Assembly (NCBI GenBank): GCA_000004985.1
Contig: GG738870.1
Source of the DNA: Naegleria gruberi
Lineage: Eukaryota
DNA length: 64,000 bases
Strand: one strand, 5' to 3'
In this document: positions 1 to 57,538 of the stretch, piece by piece
Layout of the letters: every line of letters starts with the position of its first letter
Position numbering within the stretch: the stretch's first letter is position 1
Notes under the pieces: model-generated
Told to the model about the DNA's origin: nothing
Database searches by the model: none
The model's input: only the letters and a program-made list of their open reading frames with translations
Position numbers and translations under genes: made by a program

Positions 1-3000
1 TAGCAACCCAAGCATCACTTATTTTCCCTAATAATTTTCCGTTCTCTAATATTTTGCTCAAAACTTCTGAGTGCTCAGTTGTAGACTCCATTGGCTCATT
101 ATCATGTGTCAAGGGAGACAAATTAGAGACCTGATCAGGTATCAATCTAGAATCCCAACAAACAAAAACTCGATCACCATCAAAATCACAAATCTTGATC
201 GATGTGTATCCTTGTGTTGGGAAGATAATTGCTGCATTGCTTGGTCTGTACTTGCTTCTCAGTAAGCTGTTATCTCTACAAGTGAAGGTTTGAATATCTG
301 AAGGGTGCAAACAGGGATTTCTACAAATAAATACCTGCGTACCATCCTCTATATAATTTCCATCGCCAAGTTGCACCATAACTTCATTCTCCTTCAGTTG
401 TTTATACTCATCAACAATACTCATAGCAATTACAGCTTTTTCAATTGGGATCATTGCCTTTGTTTGTACTTTCTTGATTTCGTCATAAATCAAGTATCTT
501 GCCAGATATTGCAGGAACTCATCGTCAGGCATTTCATTCAGAGATTGAATGGCTGGTAAAGTATCCATACAATTTTCTTTGAGAACTTTTAAAAAGTATT
601 TAGGAGACGTAATTTTTTCTGAGAGATCTTTGAAATAATCTAAGAATATAGAAAGGAAGGTTTCTTTGGTAATACCCAAAGTAGTAAGCAATAAAATAAT
701 TTGCTTATTTAGGTATGCTGGTTTTCGAGCAGTTGTGCAACTAACCAGTTCAATCTTGTTAAGCTCCTCTTTTCCATTAAATTTACACATTGATTCTCTA
801 AGAATGACATCCATTCCATCTCCCAAGTCTTCATCAGGTAGTACTGACAGTACTCCTTTGAATCCTAAGAATCTGATTTGCAAGGCTGTTGGCACTGAAA
901 CAAGCCCTAACTGGTTGGAAATTTGTTGCGCTATACTTTGTGAAATTTTTCCTATTCCATCAGTCATTTCAGAACCATCAATTGCCAATTCATCCTTAAC
1001 ACATTTCCACTTATTGATGGTACAAGTTTCTTTTGTAGTTGTAAAATTAAGAGCATGTCTGGAAACAAGTTTGAAGGGGTTGAGATTCGAGTCATATGTA
1101 CCAAATATTTGCATTAATTCATCGACTTCGCTACACGCTGGCATGGCAGTTGTGTCAAAGAAATAGACATAGTCACTACGGAGCATACTTAAAGAGCCAC
1201 CAACAGGACGATATTCTTTTCCACAACATTCAATACTGGCGGGAACTACATCAATAATTTTCACTTTTACAAAGTTGTCTGGGTGTAACTTTCTGAAAAA
1301 TCTCTTATCATCCATAAGTTGTGGAAGTCCATAGGTTATTTTTTGTTTGTAAGTAACAGATCTAATGAATCTACTCTCCTTTGTATCATTTGATTGCTGA
1401 GATATTTTCAATTTCTCAATGTACTCTAACATTTTTGATTCAGGTGCAAAGGTGCATTTCTTGAATAAACTACATATTTCAGCAGTAAATAACGACATGG
1501 AAAGAGCATTGGATGAAAAGCTGTCATTATTGATAAGAGCTTTCAATCTTTCACTGATAGATGATATTATTTGAGGGGAAATGTAAAGCATTGGATGTCT
1601 ATCTTGAATATACGACAGGTAATAGGAAATCGTGCTGTTTTCATGGAAGATTGATTCGTATGGAATAAGTTCTTTAACATTTAACTTGACAAAATAAACC
1701 TTGAAACCGTCAAACGTATTTGGAATGGAAGTGGTTCCTGGCTCAATATTTCCAATGCAAGAGTACTTGTTCAATTCTTCACTGTTAACCACATTAAAGA
1801 CATATTTACCACTCCTCTCATCAATTAATATGTATCTACCAACTGCCCTCAGGATTTCATTATGGAAATCCATTTCTGGAGATAACTGAATAGGTCCACC
1901 TTCTTCCATGTAGATTTCGAATCCTTTTTCAGCAGAAAAAGTCATTGCACCTGGGCAGATTTCGATATTGTTGGAATGGTAGGAATGTAAACTCTCTGTT
2001 GGCTCAATAAACAATGCTGCATGCTTATCGAGAAGTGTGTTGAAAATCATTTTGCGAACACTCTCGAATTGGGTCTCTTCCAATGTAATTTCAATGTAGG
2101 CACTCTGTTTATCCCATTCAATCATTCTAAAAGAGCGTTTAAACACTTGCATAGTATTCCTAATATCATCTAAAGTGATACTATCAAAGTGGTGAATGGT
2201 GAATGATAAAATTTTGGTCTTGATAGGCTCAATTGTTTTTCTGAACTCAAAGTAATCTTCAAGCAAGGGCTGGATTTTGTTTGAGCTTTCCTCAGATCTA
2301 TACAATTAGATTTCCTCCAAATCACAAAGAATACTTACTTTAGTGAAATTTTTGTAATCATTTCCTTCTCTTCCTTTTCAATTTGTTCATAGTAATTTTG
2401 TTCTTCTTCTTCAATCAATAAATGGAAGGTACTCTTTTTCTGACGTGCTCTTCCTCTAGCTTGAATAATTCTTCTCAAAGAAAGATTACCATCAAAGAGA
2501 ACAACAATATTACAATCAGAAATATCAATACCTTCTTCTAAAACACTAGTAGAAACTAAGAGCTTGCATTCATGATTTTTAAATTCTTCTATCAAGACTC
2601 TTTGTTCATTTTCATAATTCATTCCACCTGCTCCATATTGGCCGACTATTCTTTGAGGATAAAATTGCTTGAATTTTCTTTCCAACATTCTTGTCAACCT
2701 GAAAGACATTTCTTTGGTTTTTACAAAAACTAGAATACGTGAATCATCTTTAGTCTTGTTTAAGATGGACTCCAACACTCCAAATCTTTCTGAAAATGAA
2801 CGGGTGATATTTGAAAACTTTTCTTTTGAATATTCCAAATCTTTTGATGATTCTAGATATTCTAAAGCTTCTTTGGTTCCAAGAATATTAGTCATTTCCA
2901 TTAATCCTATAAATTTGAGCATTTTCTGTGAAATACTTTCGTATTGTGGTGGTATGTGAAGTCTTAAATAACCAATAATTGATATAAAACTCCCAAAGTG

Positions 3001-4284
3001 CCATAAATTATTAATCTTGTACTCTAGTAATTGTTCATTCAGTAAGCATACTTCTTCCTTAAATTTAGAGATCAGTTGTATTTGTTCTTGCTTCATTGAT
3101 GTTTTCCTAATTTTAGTTGATGCAGTATTTTCCATTTCTCGCATCTTTTCTCTTGTTAGAAAAGGATAGGAAACAGAATCAATTTTGAAGGAAACTTCTA
3201 ACTGTTGAAAATCTAGTGGTGATGCTGTGAGACCAGTAATTTTAACACGTGATTGTGAATTGCGAAAAGCAGCACCCAATAAATTATATCTACTATTTGG
3301 ACTAATTCCATGGTGTATCTCATCAAATACCACCATTGAAAAATCTTCAGGTCTTAACATTCTATTTTCGAACAAGTTCAATAACAAGCCATCAGTGAAG
3401 AAGCAAACTTGAACCTCTCTTTTACGTAACCTTTCAATCGACTCTGCAGTTCTCGTTTGACTACACAATACCAAGGATTTATCTTCGGTCTCTGTTATAT
3501 AATAATCAGATTGTTGAAAAGCAAGTGGAATTTTGTTCACTACAAATGCCACCAACTTTTCTGGATTGAGTACACTCATCTTTTTCATCAATAGAACAGA
3601 CACTAGAGTTTTACCTAATCCTGTTGGAAGACAAATCAGAGAGTTTGTAAACAAGCTCTGAAAGTACATCTCCACTTGATAATCTCTAGGAGTGGAATGA
3701 AGCAATGAAGGAGGATAGTACTGTTCTTGATTCTTCTCATCAAGAAAGTTTGGCAACACTGTCTGCACAATAGGCTCAACAACTTGATTTGTCAAATCAT
3801 TATTATCATTATGTGAAGGAAGGTAACTCTTGATATCCTCATAAATCATATGAAAAGGAAGTTTCCTATCGGGCCACTTTTTCTTTGCTATTGTAGTTGT
3901 TGGATCTTCCAAGCCTTTCACAAAAGTTGCTTCTGGTCTAAAGCAAACAAAGCCTTCACTCAATTGTACAACTTTGGTACCAATGGTGAATTCATCTTTA
4001 ATTTTAATAACAGTTGCGACCTTTTCATTGCACTTTCTACAATGTAATGTATGGAGAACAATCTTCTTCTTTGGTGATTCTTGAACATCCATATTAATCA
4101 TCAATTTTTGATTGTTGGAATGATTAGTATCAATTTGATCATCGGAAGTGTATTTAATTTGATGATCATAGGTTAGTGTACAGTGATTGGCATTGTTATA
4201 CTTGCATAGACACATCCAATCGAAGGAAATTAATGCATGGCCACACTTTAAACAAGAGAGAAGATGTGATGGTTGTGGAAGCAT
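1..4284 (-). CDS. Fusion gene: N-terminal DExH (Dicer/RIG-I/FANCM-like) helicase joined to a C-terminal RNA-dependent RNA polymerase. Exon 1 is 4284..2339, the intron is 2298..2338 (GTAAGT...CTAATTGTATAG, 41 nt), exon 2 is 2297..<1. The C-terminus lies beyond the window start.
   Basis: The 649-aa ORF 2335..4284 carries helicase motifs I (LPTGLGKT), II (VFDEIHH), III (TASP) and VI (QARGRARQ). Its stop codon TAA is the first three bases of a GTAAGT donor. Splicing to the AG at 2298 continues in frame (…ISLK|K|SEESSNKIQPLLEDYFEF…) into an unlisted minus-strand ORF that reaches position 1. That ORF carries RdRP hallmarks RNPCLHPSDIQ and the catalytic DFDGD (174..188). The track omitted it because it is open at the window edge. 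Confidence 0.8.
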
Positions 4285-4548: not shown

Positions 4549-4619
4549 AGGGAGATAGTTCAGTGGTAGAACATGGGATTGTGGTTCCTAAGATCAGGGT
4601 TCGATTCCCTGTCTTCCTA
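4549..4619 (+). tRNA. tRNA-His (anticodon GUG), 71 nt, no intron
   Basis: Cloverleaf folds by hand: acceptor AGGGAGA/TCTTCCT with 2 G-U pairs, D-arm GTTC-AGTGGTA-GAAC, anticodon arm TGGGA-TTGTGGT-TCCTA (U33, GUG, G37), T-arm CAGGG-TTCGATT-CCCTG, discriminator A. A T5 run follows. Confidence 0.8.
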
Positions 4620-4889
4620 CACCTTTTTGACTTTTACTTATTCTAGAATTAAGCCTGTTTATGTAGGAGTTTACAGTATTTAAGAGACAAGAAATAATTT
4701 CAAACTCTGGTTACCAGCTTTTATTTATTTAATTATACGAAATAACAATGAATTTCCTCTCCTTCCCATTCCTCTCCAAAAACTTCCTTTGTTCTGAATC
4801 AACAATAATCCACTTCAAAATCAAATACAGCATTATTCCACTTTCGATCATAGTCCAAAAGTTCAAATACACCAAAATAGTAATGGCGT

Positions 4890-7832
4890 TTGACAAGAAT
4901 TCAAAAAAAAATGATAGATTCATTAAACAATGAATTCGTTTGCAACAATGACTTGAACAAGCACCTTCGAAAATGCATACCAGTCACCGAATACAATCGT
5001 CAACTCAGAGAATTGAGACTAAACGCCTCCATTGGAAGTATTTCAGTTCTCGGTATTATGAGAATTGTCATTTTCGTCTTGTTGTTCATTGGATTAATTC
5101 TCTTTCTTCTATTCAAGAGATCGAAATATTTGAAATTCAATAGAATTGGATTTGCTTTTGGAGTTTTGATTTTTTCCTTGTTAGTTGTCTTGAATGGAAT
5201 TTTGCTAATTGACTTGATCCCTTCGAGAGTAATTGATTTTAATCCGACAGCAGCAGTGGTGGCAGCAATTAATTCTACAAAGAATTCGACTCGGCAAATT
5301 TCATTTGATTATCAACAGGTTTTGGTTGACCAAATCATTTCTCCATTAATTTTAATTCCCATTCAAACTTTTGAACAATTTGCTCAATTGGCCACAAATG
5401 CAACCACAAATCAAACTCTAGTTGACTATTCAAAAGTCAATCTTAGAACCATTCCTCTCATCCAGAGAACAAGAGCCATGTGGGTATCTCAACCTCAAGA
5501 ATTACTATCCGAAACCATATGTTTCATCCACCTTTCGACCACATCCTTGCTTCACTGGCTCATGATCTTGTGCATCCCAAACTTTATCTTTTTCAATTAT
5601 GTGATCAGATCTTACATGGAGAGAAAGAAATTGCGATTGGTAAAATTCTTGGAAAAGGAACAAGAAAAATTACATCGAGAATTTTTGAAACGTTTGCCAG
5701 AGGAAGATTCTTCTGAGAATTTAACACCTCAATCGAATGAAATTCATGTTGGAAATAGAGTTTTGAGAGGATATGCCAGTCAAAGATTGACAGATGAAAG
5801 GTCATTTATTTCTGAGAGTGATTCCTCAATTGTTTTGATGGATCAACCTAGAAAAGCTTCAATTCCACAGAGAGAAAGTTTCTTATTTGGTGATTCTCAA
5901 AGGGAACATCGATTCATGTCTAGTGTGTCAACTGAGCCATCTTTCTTTGCAAGTGTTTCACAACATGCTGGTCAACCAGGAAATAATTCTGGAAGAGTTA
6001 GAAGAGATTCAGCTGCTTCAGATACTTCTGAAAATGTGCAAACAGATGGAAGTGATCCAACTAATTTGTCAAGTTTCGGTACAAGTTTCCTTAAACCACC
6101 TCAATCGAATTATGATTCGAATGATGGTCCTCCTCAATTGCCAAATCCAAATGCGAGAAATGGAAAGGACCCGTTCAATCCTAATTATAATCCGAGAGGA
6201 ACTGAAGTTTCGTATATTTCCACCACTACTGGAATGATGACTCCAAGAGCAACAGTTGAAGACAACTTGGAAAGTGGAAGTGTTATTAAACATTCCTATT
6301 TAAGGCAAACTCATGGTGAGAGTGATACTCTTTCACAGACAGATTCCAAGTTTTTGAATAATTTTTCAATGACTCCATCGAGAACCACTCCAATGAATGA
6401 TGTCACTAATCAGTCAACTCAATTGTCAACAACTGCTTTTTCATCCACTGAAAATAGACAATTAAGATCTCAATTTGAGAATGAAAAGATGATTCTCATT
6501 CTCAATTTCTTCATTAATCATCCAAAAACCTTTCAAGCTTTGACATTTTGTTTCACAACCATCAGTTGGGCTATCGTTCAAGGAGTTTTCATAGCAATCA
6601 TGTTAGTTCCACAATCTGTCACCAGTTGTGATGCCATCTGGTATGTAGTTCAGAGAGTTTGGTACAGTTGCGTGTTAATCCTAAGTACCTGCTTTATGAT
6701 TGGACTATTTCTCTTTGATATGTTGGTCAATGAGAAAAATTCCTTATTGAAAAAGAATGTCAATTCTCCAAATTCACAAAAGAAATCCAAGTTTGCCTTC
6801 TTCAGATTCTTATCAAATTATTGGATTCATCATGATTTGATGTGGTTCAGGAGGGAGGCACTCTTATTTGTGTTGATTTTCATTGTCACTTGTTTGGGAT
6901 TGACATTAACTGACATTCTTGTTCATGTGACTAGATCTGAAGAGTTGGTGATTAGAGTTTACATGATTAAGATTGTAGCTTCATTCCTGTTTGAATTACC
7001 TTTCGTATTGGTGACTCCATTTCTTGTGGGAATGTTTGCATTGAAGAGACAATATCATGTAAGCAAGTTACAAAATGATTTTGTAAAGAATCAAGATGAT
7101 TATATTAGAAAGAGTATTAGACGAAATGAAAATAATCAAACCTTGACTCAATCAACTTTCCATCAACAATCCACCAATAATCAAGATACTCTCATTGAGC
7201 AACATTACAATTTATCAATTTATCATCCAACTGAGAATATTATGAGACAAATTCTCAAACATTCGAAACTCAATCGATTGTTCCAAGAATTTCTCCAAAG
7301 AGAATTATCAATCAGCAACTTGCTACTCTACAAGGCAGTCAATGAATACTTTATCTTGAAAGAGAAGGAAAAGATTCTCGAGCAGAGACAAAAGCTCTTC
7401 CACATTTACTACAATTTCATCAATTCCAATGATATTAATCAATCTCGTTTCAGTAACTTGTTGAATCGTTCCATTCTCTTGGTGAGTAAGAGTGAGAATA
7501 GATGGATTTCCAAATCCACAATCAAGAGATTTGATGAATTAATGAAAGCTTTCCATTCCAATCCAGTCAATGCCAAGGAATTCCACATCACCGTTGGAAG
7601 ACATCAACAATCCACTGAAGTTGAATTGGGAGACTTGATGATTCAACTCAAGGAAGAAATCCTATTCAATTTGTTGGATTCCTACACTCGATTCTTTATA
7701 GAATGCAAGGAATTCCACATGTTCCTCTCCTCCAACTCCAATTCGACTCAATTTGGTGTTGCCAATTCTTCTACTACAACTTCCAATAATCATAACAATA
7801 ACAATACTTCAAGTACCATTACTTATCAATAA
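4890..7832 (+). CDS. Polytopic membrane protein with a C-terminal RGS (regulator of G-protein signalling) domain. The N-terminal and middle regions have multiple TM helices and a Ser/Asn-rich loop.
   Basis: The 980-aa ORF has hydrophobic helices in two blocks. The C-terminal ~130 aa (LFQEFLQRELSISNLLLYKAVNEYF…LLDSYTRFF) matches the RGS-box pattern. Confidence 0.65.
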   Translation: MTRIQKKMIDSLNNEFVCNNDLNKHLRKCIPVTEYNRQLRELRLNASIGSISVLGIMRIVIFVLLFIGLILFLLFKRSKYLKFNRIGFAFGVLIFSLLVVLNGILLIDLIPSRVIDFNPTAAVVAAINSTKNSTRQISFDYQQVLVDQIISPLILIPIQTFEQFAQLATNATTNQTLVDYSKVNLRTIPLIQRTRAMWVSQPQELLSETICFIHLSTTSLLHWLMILCIPNFIFFNYVIRSYMERKKLRLVKFLEKEQEKLHREFLKRLPEEDSSENLTPQSNEIHVGNRVLRGYASQRLTDERSFISESDSSIVLMDQPRKASIPQRESFLFGDSQREHRFMSSVSTEPSFFASVSQHAGQPGNNSGRVRRDSAASDTSENVQTDGSDPTNLSSFGTSFLKPPQSNYDSNDGPPQLPNPNARNGKDPFNPNYNPRGTEVSYISTTTGMMTPRATVEDNLESGSVIKHSYLRQTHGESDTLSQTDSKFLNNFSMTPSRTTPMNDVTNQSTQLSTTAFSSTENRQLRSQFENEKMILILNFFINHPKTFQALTFCFTTISWAIVQGVFIAIMLVPQSVTSCDAIWYVVQRVWYSCVLILSTCFMIGLFLFDMLVNEKNSLLKKNVNSPNSQKKSKFAFFRFLSNYWIHHDLMWFRREALLFVLIFIVTCLGLTLTDILVHVTRSEELVIRVYMIKIVASFLFELPFVLVTPFLVGMFALKRQYHVSKLQNDFVKNQDDYIRKSIRRNENNQTLTQSTFHQQSTNNQDTLIEQHYNLSIYHPTENIMRQILKHSKLNRLFQEFLQRELSISNLLLYKAVNEYFILKEKEKILEQRQKLFHIYYNFINSNDINQSRFSNLLNRSILLVSKSENRWISKSTIKRFDELMKAFHSNPVNAKEFHITVGRHQQSTEVELGDLMIQLKEEILFNLLDSYTRFFIECKEFHMFLSSNSNSTQFGVANSSTTTSNNHNNNNTSSTITYQ

Positions 7833-18592: not shown

Positions 18593-18624
18593 AGTAAATA
18601 ATCAAAATTAAAAGTTAAAAGGTG

Positions 18625-18695
18625 TAGGAAGACAGGGAATCGAACCCTGATCTTAGGAACCACAATCCCATGTTCTACCACTGAACTATCTCCCT
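18625..18695 (-). tRNA. tRNA-His (GUG), second copy, identical to 4549..4619 but inverted
   Basis: It is the exact reverse complement of the first copy. The 3' flank ACACCTTTT(T/A)… is also conserved. Confidence 0.8.
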
Positions 18696-36798: not shown

Positions 36799-39408
36799 TT
36801 GATTTGCTTGAGTAAATTGGAAACTTGGTTTCTAATATATTACTCAAAGGGGAGTTCTGATATTTCCGTAAAGGCCTTAATTATAACGTTTAAATTTGAA
36901 AAGTCAGATAAGAAAGGTATTGACTTACTTGATGTGACGTGTGGCATCTTTAGGAAAAATTCATTTTTAATATTTGACCCTTTGAAAAAAGCAAAACAAA
37001 TTATCCTGTCTGTTCGACAAGACAAAATGCCAACAATTTATTTCTTCATCTTTTCCTGTATTGTGGCTACCACACAGATGTTTAGTTTAGTTTCGGCTCT
37101 TTCGTTAGAAACAACAATGAAAATAGATGCTAGTCAATCATCATCTTTGAATTATCTATCATCCAATAACAGTTCATCCAATGATAACAGTATTATTAAT
37201 AATTTAACGCCACCCATTGGAGTAATTTTGAATAATTATAACACTTCGGATTTTATAAATCTTATTCTAAACATTACAACAAATATAACAGCCGCACAGG
37301 ACGAATTAGTCATGACTGAAGCAATGCGAACGAATCCAACAATCACAATCATTATCAGAGTGTTACTAACTTTATTTAATTTCTTTCTAATAATTTTGAT
37401 ACTTTCGTTTAGAAAGAAGGAACCAATCAAATCAAAATTTTATATTTCTATGGCGTTGGTATTGGTTAATATCATTGGACACATTCAGGGAATTATTGAA
37501 ATTCTTCCAGGTGCACCTTTATTCTTTCAAAGTTATTGGAATCAGTTTATTTCAGAAAAGTTGACGAAACAAGTTGATGCTCAAACATTTTACAGAAATA
37601 ATTTGAATTCGTATGGTGTTCCAACGTGGCTGGAAAGTTTTGCACTCTTTGAAAACATTTATTGTTTCATTGATGCCTATTTTATTTATGGATGTACTGT
37701 TATTGGATTGGCAATGTATTCGATTCAGATAATTAAACTAATGTTATTGTTGCTGTTGAAAGATAGAAAACAGGCAGTGGCTAGATCATTGGAAGAATTC
37801 AAAAAGAGACAAGTTGAAAAGTTTAAAGATCTCAAATTGAAAGAAGTTTCTTCAGAGACGAATCTTCAAGATCAGAAACCAATTAGTTTGATGAAACGAC
37901 TCTCAAGGAAGATTCTTTTTGTGGAAACAAACACGTCTTCTGAAAATTTGACGAAACAATCAGGTGAATCTTCACCAACCACTAGTGCTAGCTCAGTATC
38001 TAGTGCTCCTTCCACTTCCAATTTATTAGAATCTAATAATTCACAACAATCACAACAACAATTGCAACAAGAATCCTCAGAAGTATCAACTCCAAGATTA
38101 TCTAAAACTGGAGAGAATGATGATTCGTCCAGTTTAGCCTACGAAGATATTGCCCTCGATTTAACAACTGATGAAGATGCACTTTCAACTAGTTACGAAG
38201 AAATTTCAAAAAAGGGAAAATTTGTTAATTTCCTTAAAAAGATTTTAAAATATCAAATTATTGAGCTGAGCTACATTGGATTCTGGTTGACTGTGTGGTA
38301 TATTCTCGTTACAATTGTAATTATTATTCGTACAGAAGACACTTGGAGTAATTTTTTCATTTCTTGGGATTCGTATAGTGGATATTGTCGACATAATGAT
38401 AGAGTTCAGATTGGATATTATTCGATTGCCATCTTGTTCCTAATTTTTGTTTTCATTCCCATTACTTTAATATTCGATTTTGTAACTAGTTTAATCAAAT
38501 ATAGAAAAATTATTCGAATCAATAGAGAAAAGAATAGAAAGACAGAAAACTTTCTCATTTACTATTTTTATGAAACTGATCCTTTCGTTTACAGAACCGA
38601 AGTATTGGGAGTATTAATATTGGACTTTATAGTGGTCCTTACCTTTTTAATTGTGCTTCCAATTGGAGTTAACGCAAATTATTCTCAACAATTGGCGAGT
38701 TCAATACTCCTTTCCATTGGATTGAATTTTATTGGAGGTGTACTTTGTAATCCTGGAATTACAATTTCAAGAACTGTGTGGAATTATTTGGTTGAGTTCA
38801 AGACCAAAAGGGCAAATAAGAAAGATTCAAATGATTCTGATACTATATTTTCATTACAGCAATTGATTTCTTCACCAATTTGTTCTGAATCAATTGATTA
38901 TGTACTTTCCCACAAAACTGAAAGAGGTTTATTCTATCAATATCTGAAAGAAGAATATTCTGTGGAAAATCTACTATTCACAGAAGATCTTATCAAATTG
39001 AGAAAGATCCACAACGCACATATCAGAGCCAAAGTAATGAAAATTAAGGAAATGATCAAACTATACCTTTCCAATAGTGATTCAGTGTTTGAACTCAACG
39101 TTCCAACAAAAGTGATTCAACAAGAGTTGACTAATTTTAGGGAATTGATGGCTTTGTTGGATGAATTGAATTTAAAGGCTACTCAACTTCCTCGTGTATT
39201 TAAGGCTGATTCGAATACTAGATATTTTCCAAATATTGATTCGAATAAGGAAGAAAAGTTGAAACAATTAATTTCACAATTGGGTAGTGGTCGAATATTC
39301 ACAAATATTCAATCAGAGGTTTACAAAAACTTGATGGATTCATATTATCGATTCAATAACTCTAGAAAGTGGAAGGACTATATTAAGACTTCTTCTTCGT
39401 CAGCTTAA
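36799..39408 (+). CDS. Polytopic membrane protein with a C-terminal RGS domain (second member). It has a Ser-rich loop. The true start may be the internal Met at about 37026, which precedes a signal-like segment.
   Basis: The 869-aa ORF has multiple TM helices. The C-terminal RGS box is SIDYVLSHKTERGLFYQYLKEEYSVENLLFTEDL…NLMDSYYRF. Confidence 0.6.
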   Translation: MICLSKLETWFLIYYSKGSSDISVKALIITFKFEKSDKKGIDLLDVTCGIFRKNSFLIFDPLKKAKQIILSVRQDKMPTIYFFIFSCIVATTQMFSLVSALSLETTMKIDASQSSSLNYLSSNNSSSNDNSIINNLTPPIGVILNNYNTSDFINLILNITTNITAAQDELVMTEAMRTNPTITIIIRVLLTLFNFFLIILILSFRKKEPIKSKFYISMALVLVNIIGHIQGIIEILPGAPLFFQSYWNQFISEKLTKQVDAQTFYRNNLNSYGVPTWLESFALFENIYCFIDAYFIYGCTVIGLAMYSIQIIKLMLLLLLKDRKQAVARSLEEFKKRQVEKFKDLKLKEVSSETNLQDQKPISLMKRLSRKILFVETNTSSENLTKQSGESSPTTSASSVSSAPSTSNLLESNNSQQSQQQLQQESSEVSTPRLSKTGENDDSSSLAYEDIALDLTTDEDALSTSYEEISKKGKFVNFLKKILKYQIIELSYIGFWLTVWYILVTIVIIIRTEDTWSNFFISWDSYSGYCRHNDRVQIGYYSIAILFLIFVFIPITLIFDFVTSLIKYRKIIRINREKNRKTENFLIYYFYETDPFVYRTEVLGVLILDFIVVLTFLIVLPIGVNANYSQQLASSILLSIGLNFIGGVLCNPGITISRTVWNYLVEFKTKRANKKDSNDSDTIFSLQQLISSPICSESIDYVLSHKTERGLFYQYLKEEYSVENLLFTEDLIKLRKIHNAHIRAKVMKIKEMIKLYLSNSDSVFELNVPTKVIQQELTNFRELMALLDELNLKATQLPRVFKADSNTRYFPNIDSNKEEKLKQLISQLGSGRIFTNIQSEVYKNLMDSYYRFNNSRKWKDYIKTSSSSA

Positions 39409-39617: not shown

Positions 39618-39706
39618 AGGGTGGTACGTGGATCGAACACGTGACCATCGGATGTCTGCTGCAAATAACTTTGCAATCCGGTGCTCTACCGCTGAGCTAA
39701 CCACCC
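39618..39706 (-). tRNA. tRNA-Cys (anticodon GCA) with a ~17-nt intron, 89 nt
   Basis: Acceptor GGGTGGT/ACCACCC, discriminator U73 (a Cys identity element), D-arm GCTC-AGCGGTA-GAGC. The anticodon stem CCGGA is followed by loop TTGCAA, then the intron inserted after position 37, then TCCGA. T-arm ACGTG-TTCGATC-CACGT. Confidence 0.75.
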
Positions 39707-44214: not shown

Positions 44215-46126
44215 ATGGCCTCATCACCAACGAGAATTTTTGAAGCCTACGAGATGGTAAGCTATATTGGTGAAATTGAGAACCAACGCACACAATCAAT
44301 ACAAGAACTTGTACCTCTAAAATCAAAAGATCATAACATTTACCTTATGAACGACAGATATGAAATTGATTGTTTCCCTATCGATTATTCTATTCATATT
44401 AAAACGCATCCATTCAAATTTTCCCAACTAAAGAACTCCTCTGAAGCAGATATTTGGAAATTGATCAAGAGGATTGCTCTTCAACAAAGTATATTTAAAG
44501 GTAGATTTATTGGTTTGAAAGGAAAAGACGGCAAGGTTAAAACTGTATCCGAATTTAAGGCTTTTATAGATCAAGTTGATATTCAGACAGATTTAAAGTT
44601 CGTTATTGTTAAAGAGAGGTTTGAGAATGTATTTTCTACCATTGAATCAAGGCTAAACCAATTAAATTCCTTAGAAAGGAACACTTGTTCTATTATCACC
44701 CTGGCAAAGGACGCTTCCTTTAACTCAAGTGCATTGGAAGGGAATATTCACAGCAACAAAGGACGAATTTGAGGCATCCGAAAGTGAGGATGAAGATTCA
44801 CTCACTCCTGATACTAAAGAAATACGAGTACTGAGAAAGATGCATGAAAGATTCCAAACCGATATAATTAATGGAAAGGTTTATACACTCGATGAAGAGC
44901 TACTGTTGACAGAACACAAAGAAATGGCCATTGGTCTTGGAGAGGGTGCAGGAAGATTCAGAAGTGTAAATGTTTATGTTAAAGGATCTTCCCACAAGTT
45001 TGCACCTTATGATACAATAAGAAGCAAGTTGGCATCTGTTTTAATGATTTTCTACTCCAAAATCACCAGCGCCAATTCGTTGGAAGAACGAATTAAGGCT
45101 GCAATTTACATCCATTATGAAATTGTTAACATTCACCCATTCAGAGATTACAACGGAAGAATGGCAAGATATATCATGAACTTAGTTTTATTTCAGTATT
45201 GTAGAATTCCTCCGGTATCAATATTGCCAGGAATTAAGGATGAATACTTTGCTTCTGTTCGCGAAGTTGATAAGAATAATGATTATAGATTTATTACTAC
45301 CATCATTACAGAATCAATTATTAGGTCTATCGAAAAAGCATTTTATTATACTCACATACAGGATGGAATGGGACTATTGTTGAATAGATTTACATTGGAT
45401 CAGCTTGCAGAATATTGTAAATCTAACAACATTACCACTGACGAAAGTTCCAAGTCTAAAATGATAAGAGATATTTTGAGACTCTCTAATAGAATTGGAG
45501 AATTTGCTTTTGTGTTGGAGTTGGAAAAACAAGATTTACAATCAATAGTTCTGGACAATAATCTATCCACTTTTTCTCAATTGCAAACATGTTTAATAGA
45601 GATTTTATTTTCTAATCCAAACACCAACCTGAAACAATTTCTCAATTTATTCAACACTGAAGGTTTAGACAGATTCTTGGAATTATTAAGAATGAAAGAT
45701 GAGTCCTCTAAGGAAGGAAAAATTACAGCTATCATGGAAGAAGTATTAATATTAGGTATGAGAATCGGATTTGGTAATATGAAGGAAGAGAACATCTCTT
45801 CTTTATGCAATGAACTGAAGATCTCTTCATTTGGTTCCAAACTTGAAAACATTCATTCAATGTTTGGTGTTATTTATCCTCATTACTCTAGATTTAAACA
45901 TTTATTATTTAAAGAATACATTTGGGATATTAAGAAAGGTATTTCTTTGGAACAATTATATCAATTTCATTACTATGACTTACTCGTTTATGCAAAAAAA
46001 CAACAATTGAATTTAAAACATAAATCCAAGAAGAGCATTTGTAAGAATATTTTAACCAGTGGTCATATTAAGAGACTTAATGAGAATGACGATTTGTTGC
46101 AAAATCTCAAGAAAAAGAAGTTATAA
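44215..46126 (+). CDS. Fic (filamentation induced by cAMP) domain protein, class-II layout (N-terminal inhibitory helix then Fic core), interrupted by a +1 frame change at about 44745
   Basis: The canonical Fic motif HPFRDYNGRMAR lies at 45134..45169 in the 465-aa ORF. The inhibitory-helix motif SSALEGN (44725..44745) is encoded at the end of the upstream 185-aa ORF in a different frame, about 130 aa upstream, as in FICD. No intron-sized GT-AG interval fits. Confidence 0.65.
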
Positions 46127-46255: not shown

Positions 46256-46344
46256 GGGTGGTTAGCTCAGCGGTAGAGCACCGGATTGCAAAGTTATTTG
46301 CAGCAGACATCCGATGGTCACGTGTTCGATCCACGTACCACCCT
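46256..46344 (+). tRNA. tRNA-Cys (GCA) with intron, second copy; identical to 39618..39706 but inverted
   Basis: The copy is identical across the mature tRNA and the intron. About 40 nt of 5' flank are also nearly identical. Confidence 0.75.
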
Positions 46345-48701: not shown

Positions 48702-50207
48702 TTACTGATTTGAAAATTTAAATCTATTAATTAAATCAGCCAAGTCATTCACACAATGAGTTTCAATCTCCTCAAATAAATCATTTCCAAAATAATATTC
48801 CTCAGATTCAATTTTTGAAATGATTAATCGTTTCCTCAATTCAACATTTTCAATATTCAATTCTGCAGGAGCACCAATTGTTAGAAATTGTTCCAAAATA
48901 AACTCTGCTGCCATTTTCTTATTGTGATAATTCTCCTTCTTGTATTGTTGAATAGATTTCCAGCAGAGAAGTGATTCTGGACAGTAACATCGTCTGGCAA
49001 AGTCCAACAATTTCTGATAATAATTCTCATCTTCCAAATTGCTTGCTACTTGCGAATCTTTGTTATTGGATAGATTACCTGTTGAATCTAGACGTGCTGA
49101 CCTATTCTTCTTGAAACGGTCCAAATAAATCTCCCAAGCAATTGGTCTCAATACTGTAATGATAATTTCCAAACTTGCAAAAGCGAATAGGAATAAACTA
49201 TATGGAATAATATAATCAACCAATGTAATATATCCATTAATATTACCCAAAATTACAAATAGCGCCAATCCAATTACTTGCGTAATGATAATTACAATAG
49301 ATTCAGTCTTGATATTCCAGGCATCTCTATCTGCCATTAGTAATAGAATTATTGAACCAATTTCAAAAATGAGATAGATCAGCGTAAGGCAAGACACCAA
49401 TATTAGCCCATTAATTGTTAAAACACATCCAAATCTGAATTCAAACATTCCAGGGTAGACAAATAATTGAGAAGCTCCATTCTCAAACTTTTTCCCAGTC
49501 TTGTCAATTCCAAATTCAATACCAGCCATCAAGAGCCATAACAGTGTATTGAATAGAAAGCAAGTAATGTACACAACCGCCACAAATTTGTAACTGGTCA
49601 AGAATTGTAATGTTTTGATTTTAAACTTCATGGAAAAATTAGTTTTCATCAAGGAATAATCCATCTTGTTGGCAACAGCTGCATTACTTGGTATTTCATC
49701 AGGTATTTCCATATTATAAGTATCCACAACACTCTGATCAGATAAACTCTTAGAAGATTCCACCTTTTCCACTGGCACACTTTCCAAATTGTTATCATTC
49801 ACTTCATTTTCCAGAGCTATCTCTTGCTTCACTTCCATCTCAATATTGGAAGATTTACTTTCCAATACTTTCTGTTGTAATTGATTCTCAAATAGTTTCA
49901 TCTTGACCTTATTCAATTTATAACTCGAAAATACACGAATGCATCGACACGTCGAGGGAAGTGTCATTATTGGACCCAGACAGAAGCACCACGAGTAGAT
50001 TGCACATGGAAATAACTTTCTTCCAATTAAAGTCCTAATACAGAATATTGTGATGAAGAAAAAACTTGAAAGTAGAGTTAGAATGGAATGCGAAAGGTTT
50101 CGTGCTCGGATACTTTTCGAATTTTGTTTAAATATTAGTCCAATAATCGAGAGAATGATGAGTGAGAAGTAGTAGAGAAGAAAGAGAGAAGTAATTCCTA
50201 CAGACAC
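48702..50207 (-). CDS. Polytopic membrane protein with a C-terminal RGS domain (third member)
   Basis: The 501-aa ORF has about 7 TM helices. It ends in an RGS box (YYQKLLDFARRCYCPESLLCWKSIQQYK…FGNDLFEEI…LADLINRF). Confidence 0.6.
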   Translation of the reverse strand: MSVGITSLFLLYYFSLIILSIIGLIFKQNSKSIRARNLSHSILTLLSSFFFITIFCIRTLIGRKLFPCAIYSWCFCLGPIMTLPSTCRCIRVFSSYKLNKVKMKLFENQLQQKVLESKSSNIEMEVKQEIALENEVNDNNLESVPVEKVESSKSLSDQSVVDTYNMEIPDEIPSNAAVANKMDYSLMKTNFSMKFKIKTLQFLTSYKFVAVVYITCFLFNTLLWLLMAGIEFGIDKTGKKFENGASQLFVYPGMFEFRFGCVLTINGLILVSCLTLIYLIFEIGSIILLLMADRDAWNIKTESIVIIITQVIGLALFVILGNINGYITLVDYIIPYSLFLFAFASLEIIITVLRPIAWEIYLDRFKKNRSARLDSTGNLSNNKDSQVASNLEDENYYQKLLDFARRCYCPESLLCWKSIQQYKKENYHNKKMAAEFILEQFLTIGAPAELNIENVELRKRLIISKIESEEYYFGNDLFEEIETHCVNDLADLINRFKFSNQ

Positions 50208-52544: not shown

Positions 52545-55500
52545 TTACTTTTTGATACCAATGAGGGCACTGTTGAGTTTGCTACTGTCAATGTTACCAC
52601 CTCCATCGAGATCATCACCTCCAGCTCCTCCTCTTGCTCCACCTCTACGGAGAGCAACTGATTTGGCAGCTGTGGCAAGTTTTAATTGTTGCATCTTTTC
52701 ATCCATAGCTCCTCTTCCTTCACCTCCACCAACTGTGGATTTGTTCTTAAGTACATCAAGTTTTTGCTTGGCTGAATTGATCTTAAGTTGTTGTTTGGCA
52801 GCTTCCTTCTTAACCTTTTCTTCTTCGGCCTTCTTTTTCTTTTCTTCTGCCTTTTTGGCTTGTTCATTCTTTTCATTGGCCTGTTTGAATTGTTGCATGA
52901 ATAGATCGATGAGAGCCAAGAATTTATCAGGTTCCTTTTGTAAATCTTCTGGTCTTTCATCAAATGACTTGGCAAGAGAATCAATTTCAGTTTTCATAAT
53001 CTTGAATTTAGCTTCAATACCTTCCAATTCATCCTTAACTTTTTGTTCAAAGCTTTCCATTGTTGAAACGAACTTGTCTTCTTCAGAGGTATTTTCCCTA
53101 GCTTTTGTAATTTGTTGTGAAAGTTGAGTGAGACACTTCTTCAATTCGTTGATATCATCTTCAACTGATCCAACCAAAACACGTGTAGCTGGTTGAATAT
53201 GAGTTAATTGAGTATCAAAGTCCATCAAGTGTTTCTTCTTTTCTCCAATGAAATCGACAATGTACTGGAGTAAACTAGTTTTACCATCACCTGATTTGGT
53301 GTCAGCAAGTTTTTGCAATGATTTGAGCTTGAAACCAAATGATATTTTCTTCTTTTGTTGACCGTTCAAAAAGTTACCAAATGTAAGAATGACAGCAAGA
53401 ATTTCCATGAATTTTTCACTTTCTCTAGCTTCCTTACATCCCAAAATCATATTTTCAATATCTGGCTTAATTTTTGAAATCATTTCATTGAAACGGAACT
53501 TGAATGACCAAGCATCCAATCTTCCAATCAAGTTAGGTATACCGTTCATGACACGGAAGAATTTATCTGGTTCAGCCAATTCATCCATCGGTCCATCATA
53601 TCCCATCACAGTATCAACTTCTTCTTGTTCTGGAGCAATTTGCTTAATAGTTCCAATATTATCAGCAGTCACAACTGCTTCATCCATAGCAATAATAGCT
53701 TTTCTGAGCATATCATATGATACACCTCTGATACTACCTAATTGGAGTGATACAGAGTAACTACGCTTAGCATCAAGCAATGATTTAACTTCCTTCTTCT
53801 TTTCCTTTGGTTCTGCTTTTTCACCTTCTTTTTCTTTCTTTGCTGTAGAGAATACAGTTGACAATTCATCAAGATTCAGCTTGGAAATAATAGAATTGGT
53901 TTCTTGAGCAATATTCTTCTTAATGAAAATTGTTTTTGCGACATTGTTCTTGTTGATAGCATCAAAGTGAACTTGACGAGTTGTTTCAGTTGGTGCCTTA
54001 GTTGGCAATGTTGGTAAACCATCACCAACACCAACACCTCTTCCACGGCCCATCATTGGCATACCAGGTACACCAGGTACTCCTGGAATACCAGGAACAC
54101 TTGGCACTCCTGGAATACCCATACCAGGTGGCATAGGAACACCTCCCATACCAGGTGGCATTGGTACTCCACCACCCATTCCAGGTGGCATTGGAATACC
54201 ACTACCAGGAGGCATTGGAATACCACCAGGTGGAGGAGGAATACCACCCATTCCTGGAGGCATTGGAATACCACCCATTCCAGGTGGCATTGGAATACCA
54301 CTACCAGGAGGAGGAGGAATACCAGTTCCAATAGGAGGAGGAGGAATACCCATTCCAGGAGGTGTTGGAATACCTACACCAATTGGTGGTGGAGGAATAC
54401 CCATTCCAGGAGGTGTTGGTATATCACCACCACCCAAAATTGGAGGTGGAGGAACACCAACTCCAGGAGGAAGAGGAATATTACTAGTTGTAGGTGCAAG
54501 TGAAGGATCTTCTTGTGTTGGTGGATTCTTCTTTAATTGATCCCTTTCTGTTTCCAATTCTTTCTCCTTCTTTTTCAAAGTTTCAATCTTGGTATTACAT
54601 TCAGAAATTAATTTCTTAACATTGTCCTCCTCTTTGGTCCAGTGTTTTTTCTTATCATCGAGTACCTTCTTTGCATGTTGGACTTGTTCATTGTTTGCCT
54701 TCTTTGAAAAGACTTCATTCTTAAGTTTTTCAATTTCTTGGTGGAGTTGAGTGAGTTCAGCCTTAATGTGGGAGTGCTTTTCTTGTTGAGTAGCCTTTTC
54801 CTTCTCAGTTTCAGAAAGCTCACTTCTAGTTTGAGCTGTTTGTTCTTCAATTTCTTTCAAGAACTTTTCCTTTTCTTCAGAAAGGGAATTCTTCTTCTTT
54901 TCAATTTCTTCCAAAGTTTTGGAAATTTCAACAATTTTAGTCTCGTACTCTTGAAGAATAGATTCGCGTTCTGATTGCAAGTTATTAAGTTGATATTGTT
55001 GGGTTTTGACTCTGTCAGCAAGTTGTTTTTCCTTCTCTGTTTTGATTTTCATGTCTTCTTCTGCTCTCTTTGGTGCCAATCCAGCATCAACCAAAAGTTT
55101 AATCTTGCTCCAATTTTGAGCTGATTGTTGTTCGGTAAGAGACTTGTCAATAGCCACCGAGTTGTAAATGATCAATTCAGTTAACAATTCATAGAGCATA
55201 TTTTTCAAAGGTTCATCATCGGAAACTTCATTCAATTTTTGTTTAAGAAGCTTGACAACATTTACAGAATCTGATAAATCATTTTCCAAAAATTCTTTTT
55301 GACAAACTTCCAGTTCACCAGCTAAAACTTCCATTTGACTGTTCAAATCAGTAATAAATTCTTGAGCTTCCTCATCTTCCATAGATTGAACAGATTTTTC
55401 CAAGCTTTGATTCTTGAGCTCTGTAATTACTTCCAAACATTTCAAATTTCTAAATTCCTTCTTGAACAAGGATTTGGTACCTTCATCAGGAGATTGATCC

Positions 55501-56658
55501 AATAATGTATTGAACAAGAACAATGCATAGTATGCATAGTCGAGATTAGATTTTGTCATTCTTTGAATAATATCATAAAATCTGGTCTTTTCTCTCTTGA
55601 CAAGTCTATAGTGACTCAATGCACTGACAACCAAACTAAAACCATGACTTGCCCAACTGGCCATGACAATCAAAATTTGTAAAATATCACAAGCTGCTTC
55701 AATATTTGGAGTATCTAAAATGAGAACCAAGTTTTTCATGGCATCTTTTTCTGCCAAAAATTCTTCAATACCCACATTGGTATTCAACAAGGCCTTCAAG
55801 GCAGCAATACAGAGGGATTGTTTTTCCAAATCCTCTACAGTAGCAACCATATTTGTGGATGTGAGTGTTCCACTTTCGTGCTCAGAGACAGCAGTTGATG
55901 TACCGCCTTGCTCAGAGTTGGATTGGTGATGTTGATGGAAATTTGGTGTATAATCTTCAGAGTCAGAATATTCTCCTTGATCGATTTCCATATTATCGGA
56001 GGCAGGTGTTACATCTTCCTCAGATTGTTGTTTTCTAGAAAGAACATTGGTCATATTCAAACAATGGATCAAATGTTTGATACCTCCTTGCATAATAAAT
56101 TGGTTGACCCATCGAATTGGCTTGTCAACCAAAAGTTCAGCAATACGAGCCAAACGTGCAGAATCATAATTGTGTTTTTCCCATTGAGAAAGGAGTACGA
56201 AAGGAGTATCCTCATCAGCAGTTTGATCATTATCGTTTTTAAAGTAATACAAACGTCTATTGATTATATTGTATTAACATGATTGATTATATTGTAATGA
56301 AACATTTTAAACATAACATCCAAAGAGTTACATACCTGACTTTTTCCTGTACAGTTTTAGTTGCCAATTGTTTTCTTCTGATACTATCTGGTACTCCCAT
56401 TTCCACTAACATTTCATTGAAATTTCCATTGACATCATCGTCATTCCATTGTAATTGTTGTTGGTAGGCAAGAGCATTAAAAGGTTCTCTATTAAAACCT
56501 CCATTATTACTACCACCAATGTTTGATGATGAGTGGGATGGGGAATTATTTGGTGAGTGATGAAGCGCCGAAGATGATGAAGAAGCAGCCTGAATCGTCA
56601 GTTGCTGCGAGTGAGAGAGCGCGGAAGTACTCTTTGATGTATTCTTTTTTGGCGCCAT
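52545..56658 (-). CDS. Diaphanous-related formin (GBD/FH3, coiled coil, poly-Pro FH1, FH2). It has two exons, 56658..56336 and 56256..52545.
   Basis: The intron is 56257..56335 (GTATGT…ATCAATAG, 79 nt) and joins …TVQEKV|R|LYYFKND… in frame. FH1 has more than 12 repeats of PPGMGIPPPPIG. The FH2 region follows and a basic C-terminal tail ends the protein. Confidence 0.8.
54040..54480 (-). repeat. Tandem imperfect about 30-36-nt repeats encoding the formin FH1 polyproline tract
   Basis: The units ccaggtggcattggaatacc[a/c]cc… are repeated. The translation is (M)GIPPPPG/IG repeated. Confidence 0.7.
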
Positions 56659-57059: not shown

Positions 57060-57428
57060 TCATTTTGTTACACAATGTTAAATCTTTGAACTTGTTTAAA
57101 TTAAAGAACTTTGAATTGTTAGGTTTTACTTTGACAAACTTTATTTTATGAAATTTGTTGAAATAAAAACGCAAAGAAGATGGTGCATTTTTAGATACTA
57201 ATTGTAAGACAAAGCATGATAGAGGACACATATGGTGCTCTTCTCTTGTGAGCTAAACTCGCTGGTGTAATTTGTAGGCATCCTTGAGGATTTGGAAGTA
57301 ATAGCTTGGTCTATTATTAACACCCTTCACATTCCTAGCGTGGCTGTGAATCAAAGTTGGGTTTTATTGGAAATGTTGATTAGGTATTAAGTACCCAAAC
57401 AAAAGGTGTTGGTGAACTAAAAACGTAA

Positions 57429-57517
57429 GGCGGCTTAGCACAGTGGCAGTGCATCAGTCTTGTAGACAGAAATGCTGAGATAACTGAGGGTCGAGGGTTC
57501 AATTCCCTCAGTCGCCT
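57429..57517 (+). tRNA. Intron-containing tRNA, most likely tRNA-Thr (UGU), 89 nt with a ~17-nt intron after position 37
   Basis: Acceptor GGCGGCT/AGTCGCC, D-arm GCAC-AGTGGCA-GTGC. The anticodon stem is TCAGT/ACTGA with loop CTTGTA|intron|A. T-arm GAGGG-TTCAATT-CCCTC. A T4 run follows. The anticodon assignment depends on intron placement; Tyr(GUA) was considered and is less consistent. Confidence 0.6.
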
Positions 57518-57538
57518 TTTGTTAATTGATAATCAAGT

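Follow-up and report, generated by a model that had tools for sequence, protein, structure and literature searches.

The first 4,284 nucleotides (nt) of a 64,000-nt stretch of the Naegleria gruberi genome (assembly GCA_000004985.1, contig GG738870.1; the whole stretch is called the window below) carry, on the minus strand, two adjacent open reading frames (ORFs) that we assign to one gene. With a probability of about 0.8, this region encodes the first 1414 residues of a single 2347-residue protein, specified by at least two exons that meet across a 41-nt intron, in which a helicase is fused to a cellular RNA-dependent RNA polymerase (RdRP). The proposed domain order is a zinc beta-tent domain, a superfamily 2 (SF2) DExH helicase of the RdRP-linked branch of the RIG-I/Dicer/Hef superfamily, a linker, the RdRP, a nucleotidyltransferase and a conserved C-terminal region. 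The domains could be identified directly, their catalytic motifs are conserved, and the protein is colinear with its homologues; by homology, it groups with the ancient helicase-RdRP family typified by Dictyostelium RrpA, RrpB and RrpC. The features of the gene are as follows.

2339..4284, minus strand: exon 1, 1946 nt, ending in phase 2; residues 1-648 plus two bases of the K649 codon, with the start codon, the zinc domain and the complete SF2 helicase
3835..4284, minus strand: zinc beta-tent domain (residues 1-150), from family profiles, an AlphaFold2 model and Foldseek; most like the C-terminal (regulatory) domain of RIG-I-like receptors
4254..4252, 4245..4243, 4041..4039 and 4032..4030, minus strand: likely zinc ligands C11, C14, C82 and C85
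4185..4183 (H34) and 3876..3874 (W137), minus strand: other conserved positions of this domain, together with the basic patch K72-K74 and K134-K136
3217..3690, minus strand: helicase core domain 1 (residues 199-356), from Pfam ResIII (1e-13) and DEAD (8.9e-13), PDB matches and Hel1 trees
3627..3607 and 3324..3313, minus strand: helicase motifs I (PTGLGKT) and II (DEIH); motif III is TAS, within LTASP
2782..3216, minus strand: insertion of about 145 residues (357-501) between the RecA-like domains, placed by position only where RIG-I/Dicer/Hef-type helicases have Hel2i
2446..2781, minus strand: helicase core domain 2 (residues 502-613), Pfam Helicase_C 9.5e-18
2463..2440, minus strand: helicase motif VI, QARGRARQ, read in translation
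2298..2338, minus strand: proposed 41-nt intron, from the rejoined frames, a database match crossing the junction and colinear homologues
1..2297, minus strand: window part of exon 2, residues 649-1414, stop-free and continuing beyond position 1
1346..2296, minus strand: linker or pre-RdRP region (residues 650-966), weakly conserved
2150..2152, minus strand: internal ATG (M698), the start codon of the public model EFC44057 ("NaegRDR3"), which opens MQVFKRSF
8..1345, minus strand: cellular RdRP domain (residues 967-1412), Pfam PF05183, E = 1.7e-82
322..290 and 187..173, minus strand: RdRP motif RNPCLHPSDIQ and catalytic motif DFDGD

Gene structure and the proposed splice junction

The upstream part of the gene appears in the ORF list and in translation as a minus-strand ORF at 4284..2335 (649 residues) with the full set of SF2 helicase motifs. 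Its stop codon, TAA at 2337..2335, is embedded in a GTAAGT donor (2338..2333), from which 41 nt (2338..2298, minus strand) lead through a TCTAAT element to TATAG; the 3' end reads TCTAATTGTATAG, its last base lying at 2298. With these 41 nt removed, 4284..2339 (1946 nt, phase 2) runs on in frame into 2297..1 for 1414 residues without a stop, and the frame is still open at the window edge. A previous reading of the letters and their ORFs alone (hereafter the sequence-only reading) had proposed this same in-frame join, with the helicase stop codon as part of the donor, a helicase carrying GKT, DEIH, TASP and QARGRARQ on one side and an RdRP reaching the window edge on the other. The coordinates and the phase are correct, all four helicase motifs lie in ORF 4284..2335, and the downstream frame contains both RNPCLHPSDIQ and DFDGD. 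The Pfam search that it had put forward as a check returned the RdRP family PF05183 (1.7e-82) as well as Helicase_C (9.5e-18) and DEAD (8.9e-13).

The comparison with related proteins supports the junction in several ways. A 184-residue query straddling it gave a single BLASTP high-scoring segment pair (HSP) with a Naegleria lovaniensis protein, P0001 (query 1-124, subject 461-580, E = 5e-20), which spans helicase motif VI, the junction and part of exon 2 with a gap of only 2 residues. The first 48 codons after the acceptor, up to the earliest ATG in exon 2, are open, Met-free and conserved, and must therefore be translated from upstream. The top homologues, P0001 (2234 residues) and Willaertia magna P0002 (2397 residues), are single long chains with which the spliced product is colinear in a four-way alignment, and the N-terminus encoded by exon 1 aligns with the start of P0002, MSKPCLLCCKCG. 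Other candidate introns that would join ORFs in the window begin with GTAAGT or GTATGT and measure 47-86 nt; at 41 nt the proposed intron is short but in keeping with them. On these alignments, the splice across 2338..2298 is very probably real.

Residues 698-1414 of the spliced product are 100% identical to residues 1-717 of a 1650-residue N. gruberi protein titled "predicted protein" (P0076; EFC44057.1 / XP_002676801.1 / D2VGF8). Appending the remainder of that protein yields the reconstructed chain of 2347 residues, which falls within the size range of the family (2300-2700 residues); neither the 1414 codons in the window nor the remaining 933 codons contain a stop or a frameshift. The public model is without the zinc domain, the helicase and 48 more codons. 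Adjoining ORFs in the window exactly match N. gruberi EFC44059, EFC44060, EFC44062, EFC43964 and EFC43968, on which ground a dictyostelid source was rejected, and the gap in the accession numbers suggests, without establishing it, that the helicase ORF is annotated as EFC44058. The gene is present as "NaegRDR3" in the survey of Bollmann et al. 2016 (PMC4791657), in a truncated model starting from MQVFKR, and the supplement to that survey counts about 10 N. gruberi RNA-dependent RNA polymerases (RDRs). Naegleria is absent from its list of organisms with helicase-RDRs because the truncated model was used. Our result at the locus is a correction of the gene model, in which N. gruberi RDR3 (EFC44057) is short of ~700 N-terminal residues, the whole helicase included, and the helicase-RdRP family now extends to Heterolobosea.

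The polymerase and the nucleotidyltransferase

The RdRP domain scores 278 bits against PF05183 (cut-off 23.8). The match covers profile positions 37-501 of 582, so that the domain is cut by the window edge. Its matches among solved structures are RDR 7w84 (1.1e-29), Arabidopsis RDR2 7eu0 (6e-28) and QDE-1 (1.1e-16). With DxDGD intact, the domain is predicted to be an RNA polymerase. A BLAST comparison of the RdRP core with the collected proteins did not separate fused from unfused RdRPs and did not demonstrate co-inheritance with the helicase. The linker that precedes the polymerase (residues 650-966) has no Pfam match, nor any PDB sequence match before residue 917; an AlphaFold2 model of residues 650-965 built from 4 sequences has a predicted local distance difference test score (pLDDT) of 34.8, too low to be of use, and an RRM-like β-α-β-β-α pattern is a hint at most.

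The lead-in to the catalytic loop is atypical (173-190, minus strand; residues 1350-1357), reading KICDFDGD where relatives have SG(G/S)DLDGD. The three aspartates are intact and the usual glycine-rich lead-in is missing.

Past the window edge, EFC44057 continues through the end of the RdRP domain into MFGS…SDCDTF…IDFT and then a PAP-associated-like segment. A nine-member family profile of this C-terminal region matches TUT7 (6.9e-17), TUT4 and trypanosome TUTases, and also GLD-2 (1.2e-13), CutA, Trf4, URT1, Tailor and Cid1, while Pfam finds PF22600 (1.2e-10) in the homologue P0003. The G-S, the DxD and the third acidic position of the transferase are conserved in heterolobosean, amoebozoan, oomycete and streptophyte members. 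We predict a nucleotidyltransferase of the Cid1/GLD-2/TUTase type C-terminal to the RdRP.

The helicase and its relation to Dicer

Among solved structures, phmmer matches the helicase in two stretches that flank the insertion at residues 357-501. The best-scoring structures are those of Dicer helicases (AncD1D2, a reconstructed ancestral Dicer helicase, 1.3e-31; DCL1, 1.5e-26; human Dicer, 1.1e-24), followed by RIG-I (4e-24), MDA5 (2.9e-23), Hef (1.1e-22) and FANCM (1.1e-22). The corresponding bit scores are 90-113 for Dicer, 85-88 for RIG-I and MDA5 and 84 for Hef and FANCM; by this measure the helicase is nearly equidistant from the three groups within the superfamily.

Neighbour-joining (NJ) trees of Hel1 gave a more specific placement. 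They combined the published alignment of Dicer and RDR-linked helicases with the N. gruberi protein, eight more fused proteins and Hef/FANCM outgroups (159 columns, 200 bootstraps; RIG-I-like receptors were left out). The trio formed by the Naegleria and Willaertia proteins is monophyletic in 199 of the 200 bootstraps; its sister group consists of RDR-linked helicases only in 198 and of Dicer in 1, with the Dictyostelium helicases as nearest neighbours. RDR-linked and Dicer helicases together stand apart from Hef/FANCM in 191/200. Other groupings are weak in this tree, namely the monophyly of Dicer (90/200) and of the RDR-linked helicases (35/200), for which Bollmann et al. 2016 (PMC4791657) report a split with 100% Bayesian support. 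Mean Hel1 identity of the N. gruberi protein follows the same order, at 34.9% with RDR-linked helicases, 28.8% with Dicers and 26.4% with Hef/FANCM. The helicase thus placed appears to belong to the RdRP-linked branch, and not to the Dicer or Hef/FANCM branch; for all that Dicers are its best-scoring structures, it is not nested inside the Dicer group.

The sequence-only reading had described the helicase as the one that Dicer normally carries, now sitting on the RdRP. This is where we part from it: besides the sister-group relation found in 198/200 bootstraps, the N. gruberi Dicer NaegDCR2 keeps its own helicase, with motif I and DEAH intact in the alignment of Bollmann et al. Since Naegleria has a helicase on both Dicer and RdRP, the story of a helicase that moved from one to the other is weakened. 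"Dicer-related" would be a fair label for the helicase, whereas a helicase swap from Dicer is not supported by these comparisons.

A Dicer gene was rejected as an identity for the locus, since neither the 1414 residues nor the 933-residue remainder has an RNase III, PAZ, DUF283 or dsRBD match in Pfam.

The top match to the helicase that is not an RdRP is a mollusc protein (P0007, Dreissena polymorpha LOC127845174, 2116 residues; 34% identity, E = 1.8e-24). It combines the C2H2 zinc-finger families PF12756, PF12171 and PF12874 with a helicase of the RdRP-linked branch and has no RdRP.

The N-terminal zinc beta-tent domain

The first 150 residues contain a CxxC…H…CxxC pattern that is kept in the fused homologues P0002, P0003, P0005, P0045 and P0046. 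The sequence-only reading overlooked this domain, and the nucleotidyltransferase, being past the window edge, was out of its sight. An alignment of 35 members shows no variation at C11, C14 and C85 and very little at H34 and C82. A six-sequence profile of the domain matches, in the PDB, the C-terminal domain (CTD) of MDA5 (3ga3) over nearly its full length (1.6e-4), the DRH-3 CTD (7.9e-4) and the RIG-I CTD (0.074). The 35-member profile matches DRH-3 (4.9e-5), RIG-I (2.6e-3), MDA5 (about 3e-3), and LGP2 and DRH-1 (6e-3); it also matches Mis18 (1.6e-3), with MsrB, YPEL5 and cereblon as weaker matches. A search of a word-indexed database with this profile gave no matches. When the 35 members were scanned individually against Pfam, 24 matched PF11648, RIG-I_C-RD (best 3.5e-7), and 24 matched Yippee-Mis18 (best 1.2e-5).

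AlphaFold2 modelled the N. gruberi domain with a pLDDT of 84.1 and a predicted template modelling score (pTM) of 0.80. The top 19 PDB matches that Foldseek returned with this model are all CTDs of RIG-I-like receptors (RLRs) or DRH proteins, with other beta-tent proteins after them; the LGP2 match has a value of 2.9e-4, and TM-scores normalised to the target are 0.5-0.62. The sequences in the Bollmann supplement show the same zinc pattern N-terminally in Dictyostelium RDR2a/b, Hydra RDR1/2, Nematostella RDR1 and a Phytophthora RDR; the DicdRDR1 N-terminus is without it. We conclude from the profiles and the model that a zinc beta-tent domain is part of the family and that the C-terminal domains of RLRs are its closest characterised relatives, although here it is placed N-terminally. 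The K72-74 patch and KKKW (134-137) align with basic and aromatic positions of the RLR CTDs; by analogy with these, the domain might bind RNA ends.

The annotated start of N. lovaniensis P0001 (C9374_010521) lies ~57 residues before the helicase, and its residues 1-30 are without the zinc domain found in Willaertia and N. gruberi. The 5' gene model of P0001 is probably truncated.

Alternative explanations

Several points weigh against the assignment of a single spliced gene with these domains and functions. We infer the splicing rather than observe it, and the current annotation has the RdRP as a separate gene of 1650 residues. The pattern GTAAGT-N(25-55)-TATAG is unique in the window, yet of 100 shuffled versions of the window 34 contain it at least once; the intron motif alone is not beyond chance, and the comparative evidence carries the case for splicing. 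A second in-frame acceptor at 2241 would define a 98-nt intron (2241..2338). For the domains, RLRs are missing from the Hel1 tree, and the nucleotidyltransferase lies outside the window, in EFC44057. The N. gruberi zinc domain alone matches neither PF11648 nor Yippee-Mis18 in Pfam (its N-terminus gives only spurious weak matches to CagZ and Eapp_C), so that its assignment rests on the family profiles and the predicted structure. Yippee/Mis18 also scores close behind the RIG-I CTD, which makes the label "RNA-end sensor" an analogy and not a result. The enzymatic activities, the sensing of RNA ends and a role in RNA interference (RNAi) are predictions for the N. gruberi protein.

Three other accounts of the junction can be set against a fused gene with a 41-nt intron. 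If helicase and RdRP were independent genes, the 649-residue helicase would end at TAA 2337..2335, the RdRP EFC44057 would begin at ATG 2152..2150, and the GTAAGT…TATAG pattern would be a coincidence, as the public start at M698 and the frequency of the pattern in shuffled windows allow. We consider this improbable, because the 48 open, Met-free codons before M698 align to N. lovaniensis in the very HSP that covers the helicase end, because helicase and RdRP share one chain in the N. lovaniensis and Willaertia homologues and in at least 61 further cluster representatives, and because the donor falls exactly at the stop with the phase restored across the intron. A chance juxtaposition of two ORFs was rejected on the homology across the junction.

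A genuine stop in N. gruberi, with the downstream part translated from a new internal start or turning into a pseudogene, would amount to recent fission or decay of the gene. The roughly 10 RDR paralogues of N. gruberi could make such a loss tolerable, and the active-site context KICDFDGD departs from the usual SG(G/S)DLDGD. Still, 1414 codons and the 933 further codons of EFC44057 run without stop or frameshift, the protein keeps every helicase motif, DxDGD and the carboxylates of the nucleotidyltransferase, and the lone "stop" sits inside a consensus donor with a consensus acceptor 41 nt on and a CTAAT branch-like site; we regard this account as highly improbable. We give equally little credence to the same fused gene being spliced from donor 2338 to acceptor 2241, even though this 98-nt intron also has the form GT…(T)CAG and keeps the frame. 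It would remove 19 residues (SEESSNKIQPLLEDYFEFR) that align with N. lovaniensis S--SDEIEPLFREFLKTK; the 41-nt intron keeps this conserved sequence, which makes the 98-nt version the less likely of the two. The fused gene with the 41-nt intron is the structure we retain in what follows.

Family breadth and comparison with known systems

An exhaustive HMMER search with a profile that starts at the zinc domain and includes the beginning of the RdRP retrieved 3248 proteins (E ≤ 1e-30). Among the best 150, proteins of 2300-2700 residues that match from about profile position 6-10 on predominate. A motif scan of these best 150 cluster representatives found both GxGKT and DxDGD in at least 61, the zinc pattern in at least 35 and the transferase motif in at least 28. 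Family members occur in Pelomyxa, Endostelium, Dictyostelium, Heterostelium, Plasmopara, the dinoflagellate Effrenium, the liverwort Riccia, Mesotaenium, the chytrid Cladochytrium and Paratrimastix. Helicase-RdRPs are accordingly spread over Amoebozoa, oomycetes, a dinoflagellate, streptophytes, a chytrid, Preaxostyla and cnidarians (Hydra, Nematostella), and this wide distribution argues that the architecture is ancient and was repeatedly lost, instead of being a peculiarity of slime moulds.

The best-known members are the helicase-RdRPs RrpA, RrpB and RrpC (DosA) of Dictyostelium discoideum, reportedly described by Martens and co-workers in 2002. Like the N. gruberi protein, they place an SF2 helicase before a PF05183 RdRP in one chain of ~2300-2400 residues, and the RrpA/B-type proteins (RDR2a/b) have the CxxC…H…CxxC domain at the N-terminus as well. 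The two organisms belong to different eukaryotic supergroups, and the identity of the helicase cores is only about 30-40%. The likeness to RrpA/RrpB/DosA that the sequence-only reading drew therefore stands for the domain order, whereas the arrangement is not the unusual one that it was taken for, being present in at least 61 of the best 150 representatives and in many lineages. The Dictyostelium Dicers DrnA/B are without a helicase, whereas NaegDCR2 has one, so the rationale of a swap in Dictyostelium is not transferable to Naegleria. The Dictyostelium helicase-RdRPs have been genetically implicated in the production and spreading of small interfering RNAs (Wiegand & Hammann 2013, PMC3661229). 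The placing of the locus in the small-RNA machinery, also part of the sequence-only reading, is plausible, an RNAi role for the N. gruberi protein being predicted by homology. The Dictyostelium literature that we examined mentions the helicase and RdRP domains only.

The helicase-RDRs of peronosporomycete oomycetes, Hydra and Nematostella share the architecture, and in the tree of Bollmann et al. (PMC4791657) the helicases of this group are separated from those of Dicer as a clade. As in N. gruberi, the zinc domain is visible at the N-termini of PhysRDR, HydmRDR1/2 and NemvRDR1.

RLRs and Caenorhabditis elegans DRH-1 and DRH-3 also combine a helicase of the same superfamily with a zinc beta-tent domain, which binds RNA ends. 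In these proteins the zinc domain is C-terminal to the helicase, whereas in N. gruberi it is N-terminal, CARDs are missing and an RdRP is fused; moreover, the N. gruberi helicase core scores slightly higher with Dicers than with RLRs. With the domain differently placed and PF11648 unmatched, the protein would resemble the RLR/DRH group without being a member of it. DRH-3 works with the RdRPs RRF-1 and EGO-1 in 22G-RNA synthesis.

In Schizosaccharomyces pombe, the RNA-dependent RNA polymerase complex (RDRC) consists of the RdRP Rdp1, the helicase Hrr1 and the nucleotidyltransferase Cid12, and it acts in small-RNA amplification; the Tetrahymena RDRCs contain Rdr1 and Rdn nucleotidyltransferases. 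The same three activities that are subunits in fission yeast are predicted domains of one polypeptide in N. gruberi, a likeness by type of activity. If an RDRC is understood as the association of a helicase, an RdRP and a nucleotidyltransferase, the N. gruberi protein would qualify trivially, through the domains of one chain.

Proposed mechanism and implications

Based on this domain order, we propose a working scheme for the protein. The zinc domain and the helicase would recognise and hold an RNA end or duplex, with ATP-driven translocation or remodelling by the helicase. The RdRP would copy aberrant or targeted transcripts into complementary RNA for small-RNA amplification, and the nucleotidyltransferase could add 3' tails to template or product. 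The double-stranded RNA would then pass to Dicers, which bear a helicase in Naegleria, for processing. The scheme has precedents in DRH-3 acting with RRF-1 and EGO-1, in the RDRCs of S. pombe and Tetrahymena, and in the genetics of Dictyostelium RrpA and RrpC. One chain would thereby unite three activities that fission yeast divides among Rdp1, Hrr1 and Cid12. The natural fusion suggests that small-RNA amplification relies on the cooperation of end sensing, of unwinding or translocation, of RNA copying and of tailing at the 3' end. It also points to old evolutionary ties between the amplification step of RNAi and sensing of the RIG-I type.

More tentatively, and at somewhat less than even odds, the whole family may represent an ancient pan-eukaryotic architecture of four parts, namely a RIG-I-CTD-like sensor, a RIG-I/Dicer-type helicase, an RdRP and a Cid1-type nucleotidyltransferase. 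RLRs are generally held to be metazoan-specific (PMC8476169). If the proposal is right, a module of sensor and helicase thought to be specific to metazoan RLRs would already have been present in the RNA-silencing amplification of early eukaryotes. The family would also offer a complete RDRC as a single chain and a direct way to study template choice by cellular RdRPs. The fusion type of helicase and RdRP is itself already known, and the zinc and transferase modules may or may not be new: our searches of full-text literature brought up no paper in which helicase-RdRPs are connected with a RIG-I CTD or with a domain of the Cid1 type, though an earlier description may exist.

Neighbouring features of the window

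Other genes and elements of the window are listed below.

4549-4620, plus strand: tRNA-His(GTG), on the strand opposite to the helicase-RdRP gene and only 265 nt upstream of its start codon, so delimiting that gene on the 5' side
18624-18695, minus strand: second copy of tRNA-His(GTG), with an identical score
17520-17638, minus strand: dispersed 5S rRNA gene (Rfam, 105 bits) with tRNAs and protein-coding genes around it
39618-39706 (minus strand), 46256-46344 (plus strand) and 57428-57518 (plus strand): three tRNA genes of 89-91 nt, two found by Rfam and missed by ARAGORN
52545-56252, with 56257-56335, minus strand: formin gene (FH2 1.9e-77, GBD/FH3)
44215-46126, plus strand: Fic/DOC-domain ORF (E = 1.1e-13), overlapping an upstream ORF in another frame

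The three tRNA genes of 89-91 nt probably contain introns. The long formin ORF can be joined to an upstream ORF of 133 codons by a candidate 79-nt GTATGT…AATAG intron, and the overlap at the Fic/DOC ORF suggests an unrecognised intron or a frameshift. Three large ORFs end in RGS domains, at 4890-7832 (plus strand; Pfam 3.2e-4), 36799-39408 (plus strand; 1.4e-8) and 48702-50207 (minus strand; 5.8e-4), the matches in 4890-7832 and 48702-50207 falling below the curated Pfam cut-off. The ORF at 4890-7832, just upstream of the helicase-RdRP gene, has hydrophobic, putatively membrane-spanning stretches as judged from its translation only, and the three ORFs may form a local cluster of receptor-like RGS proteins.

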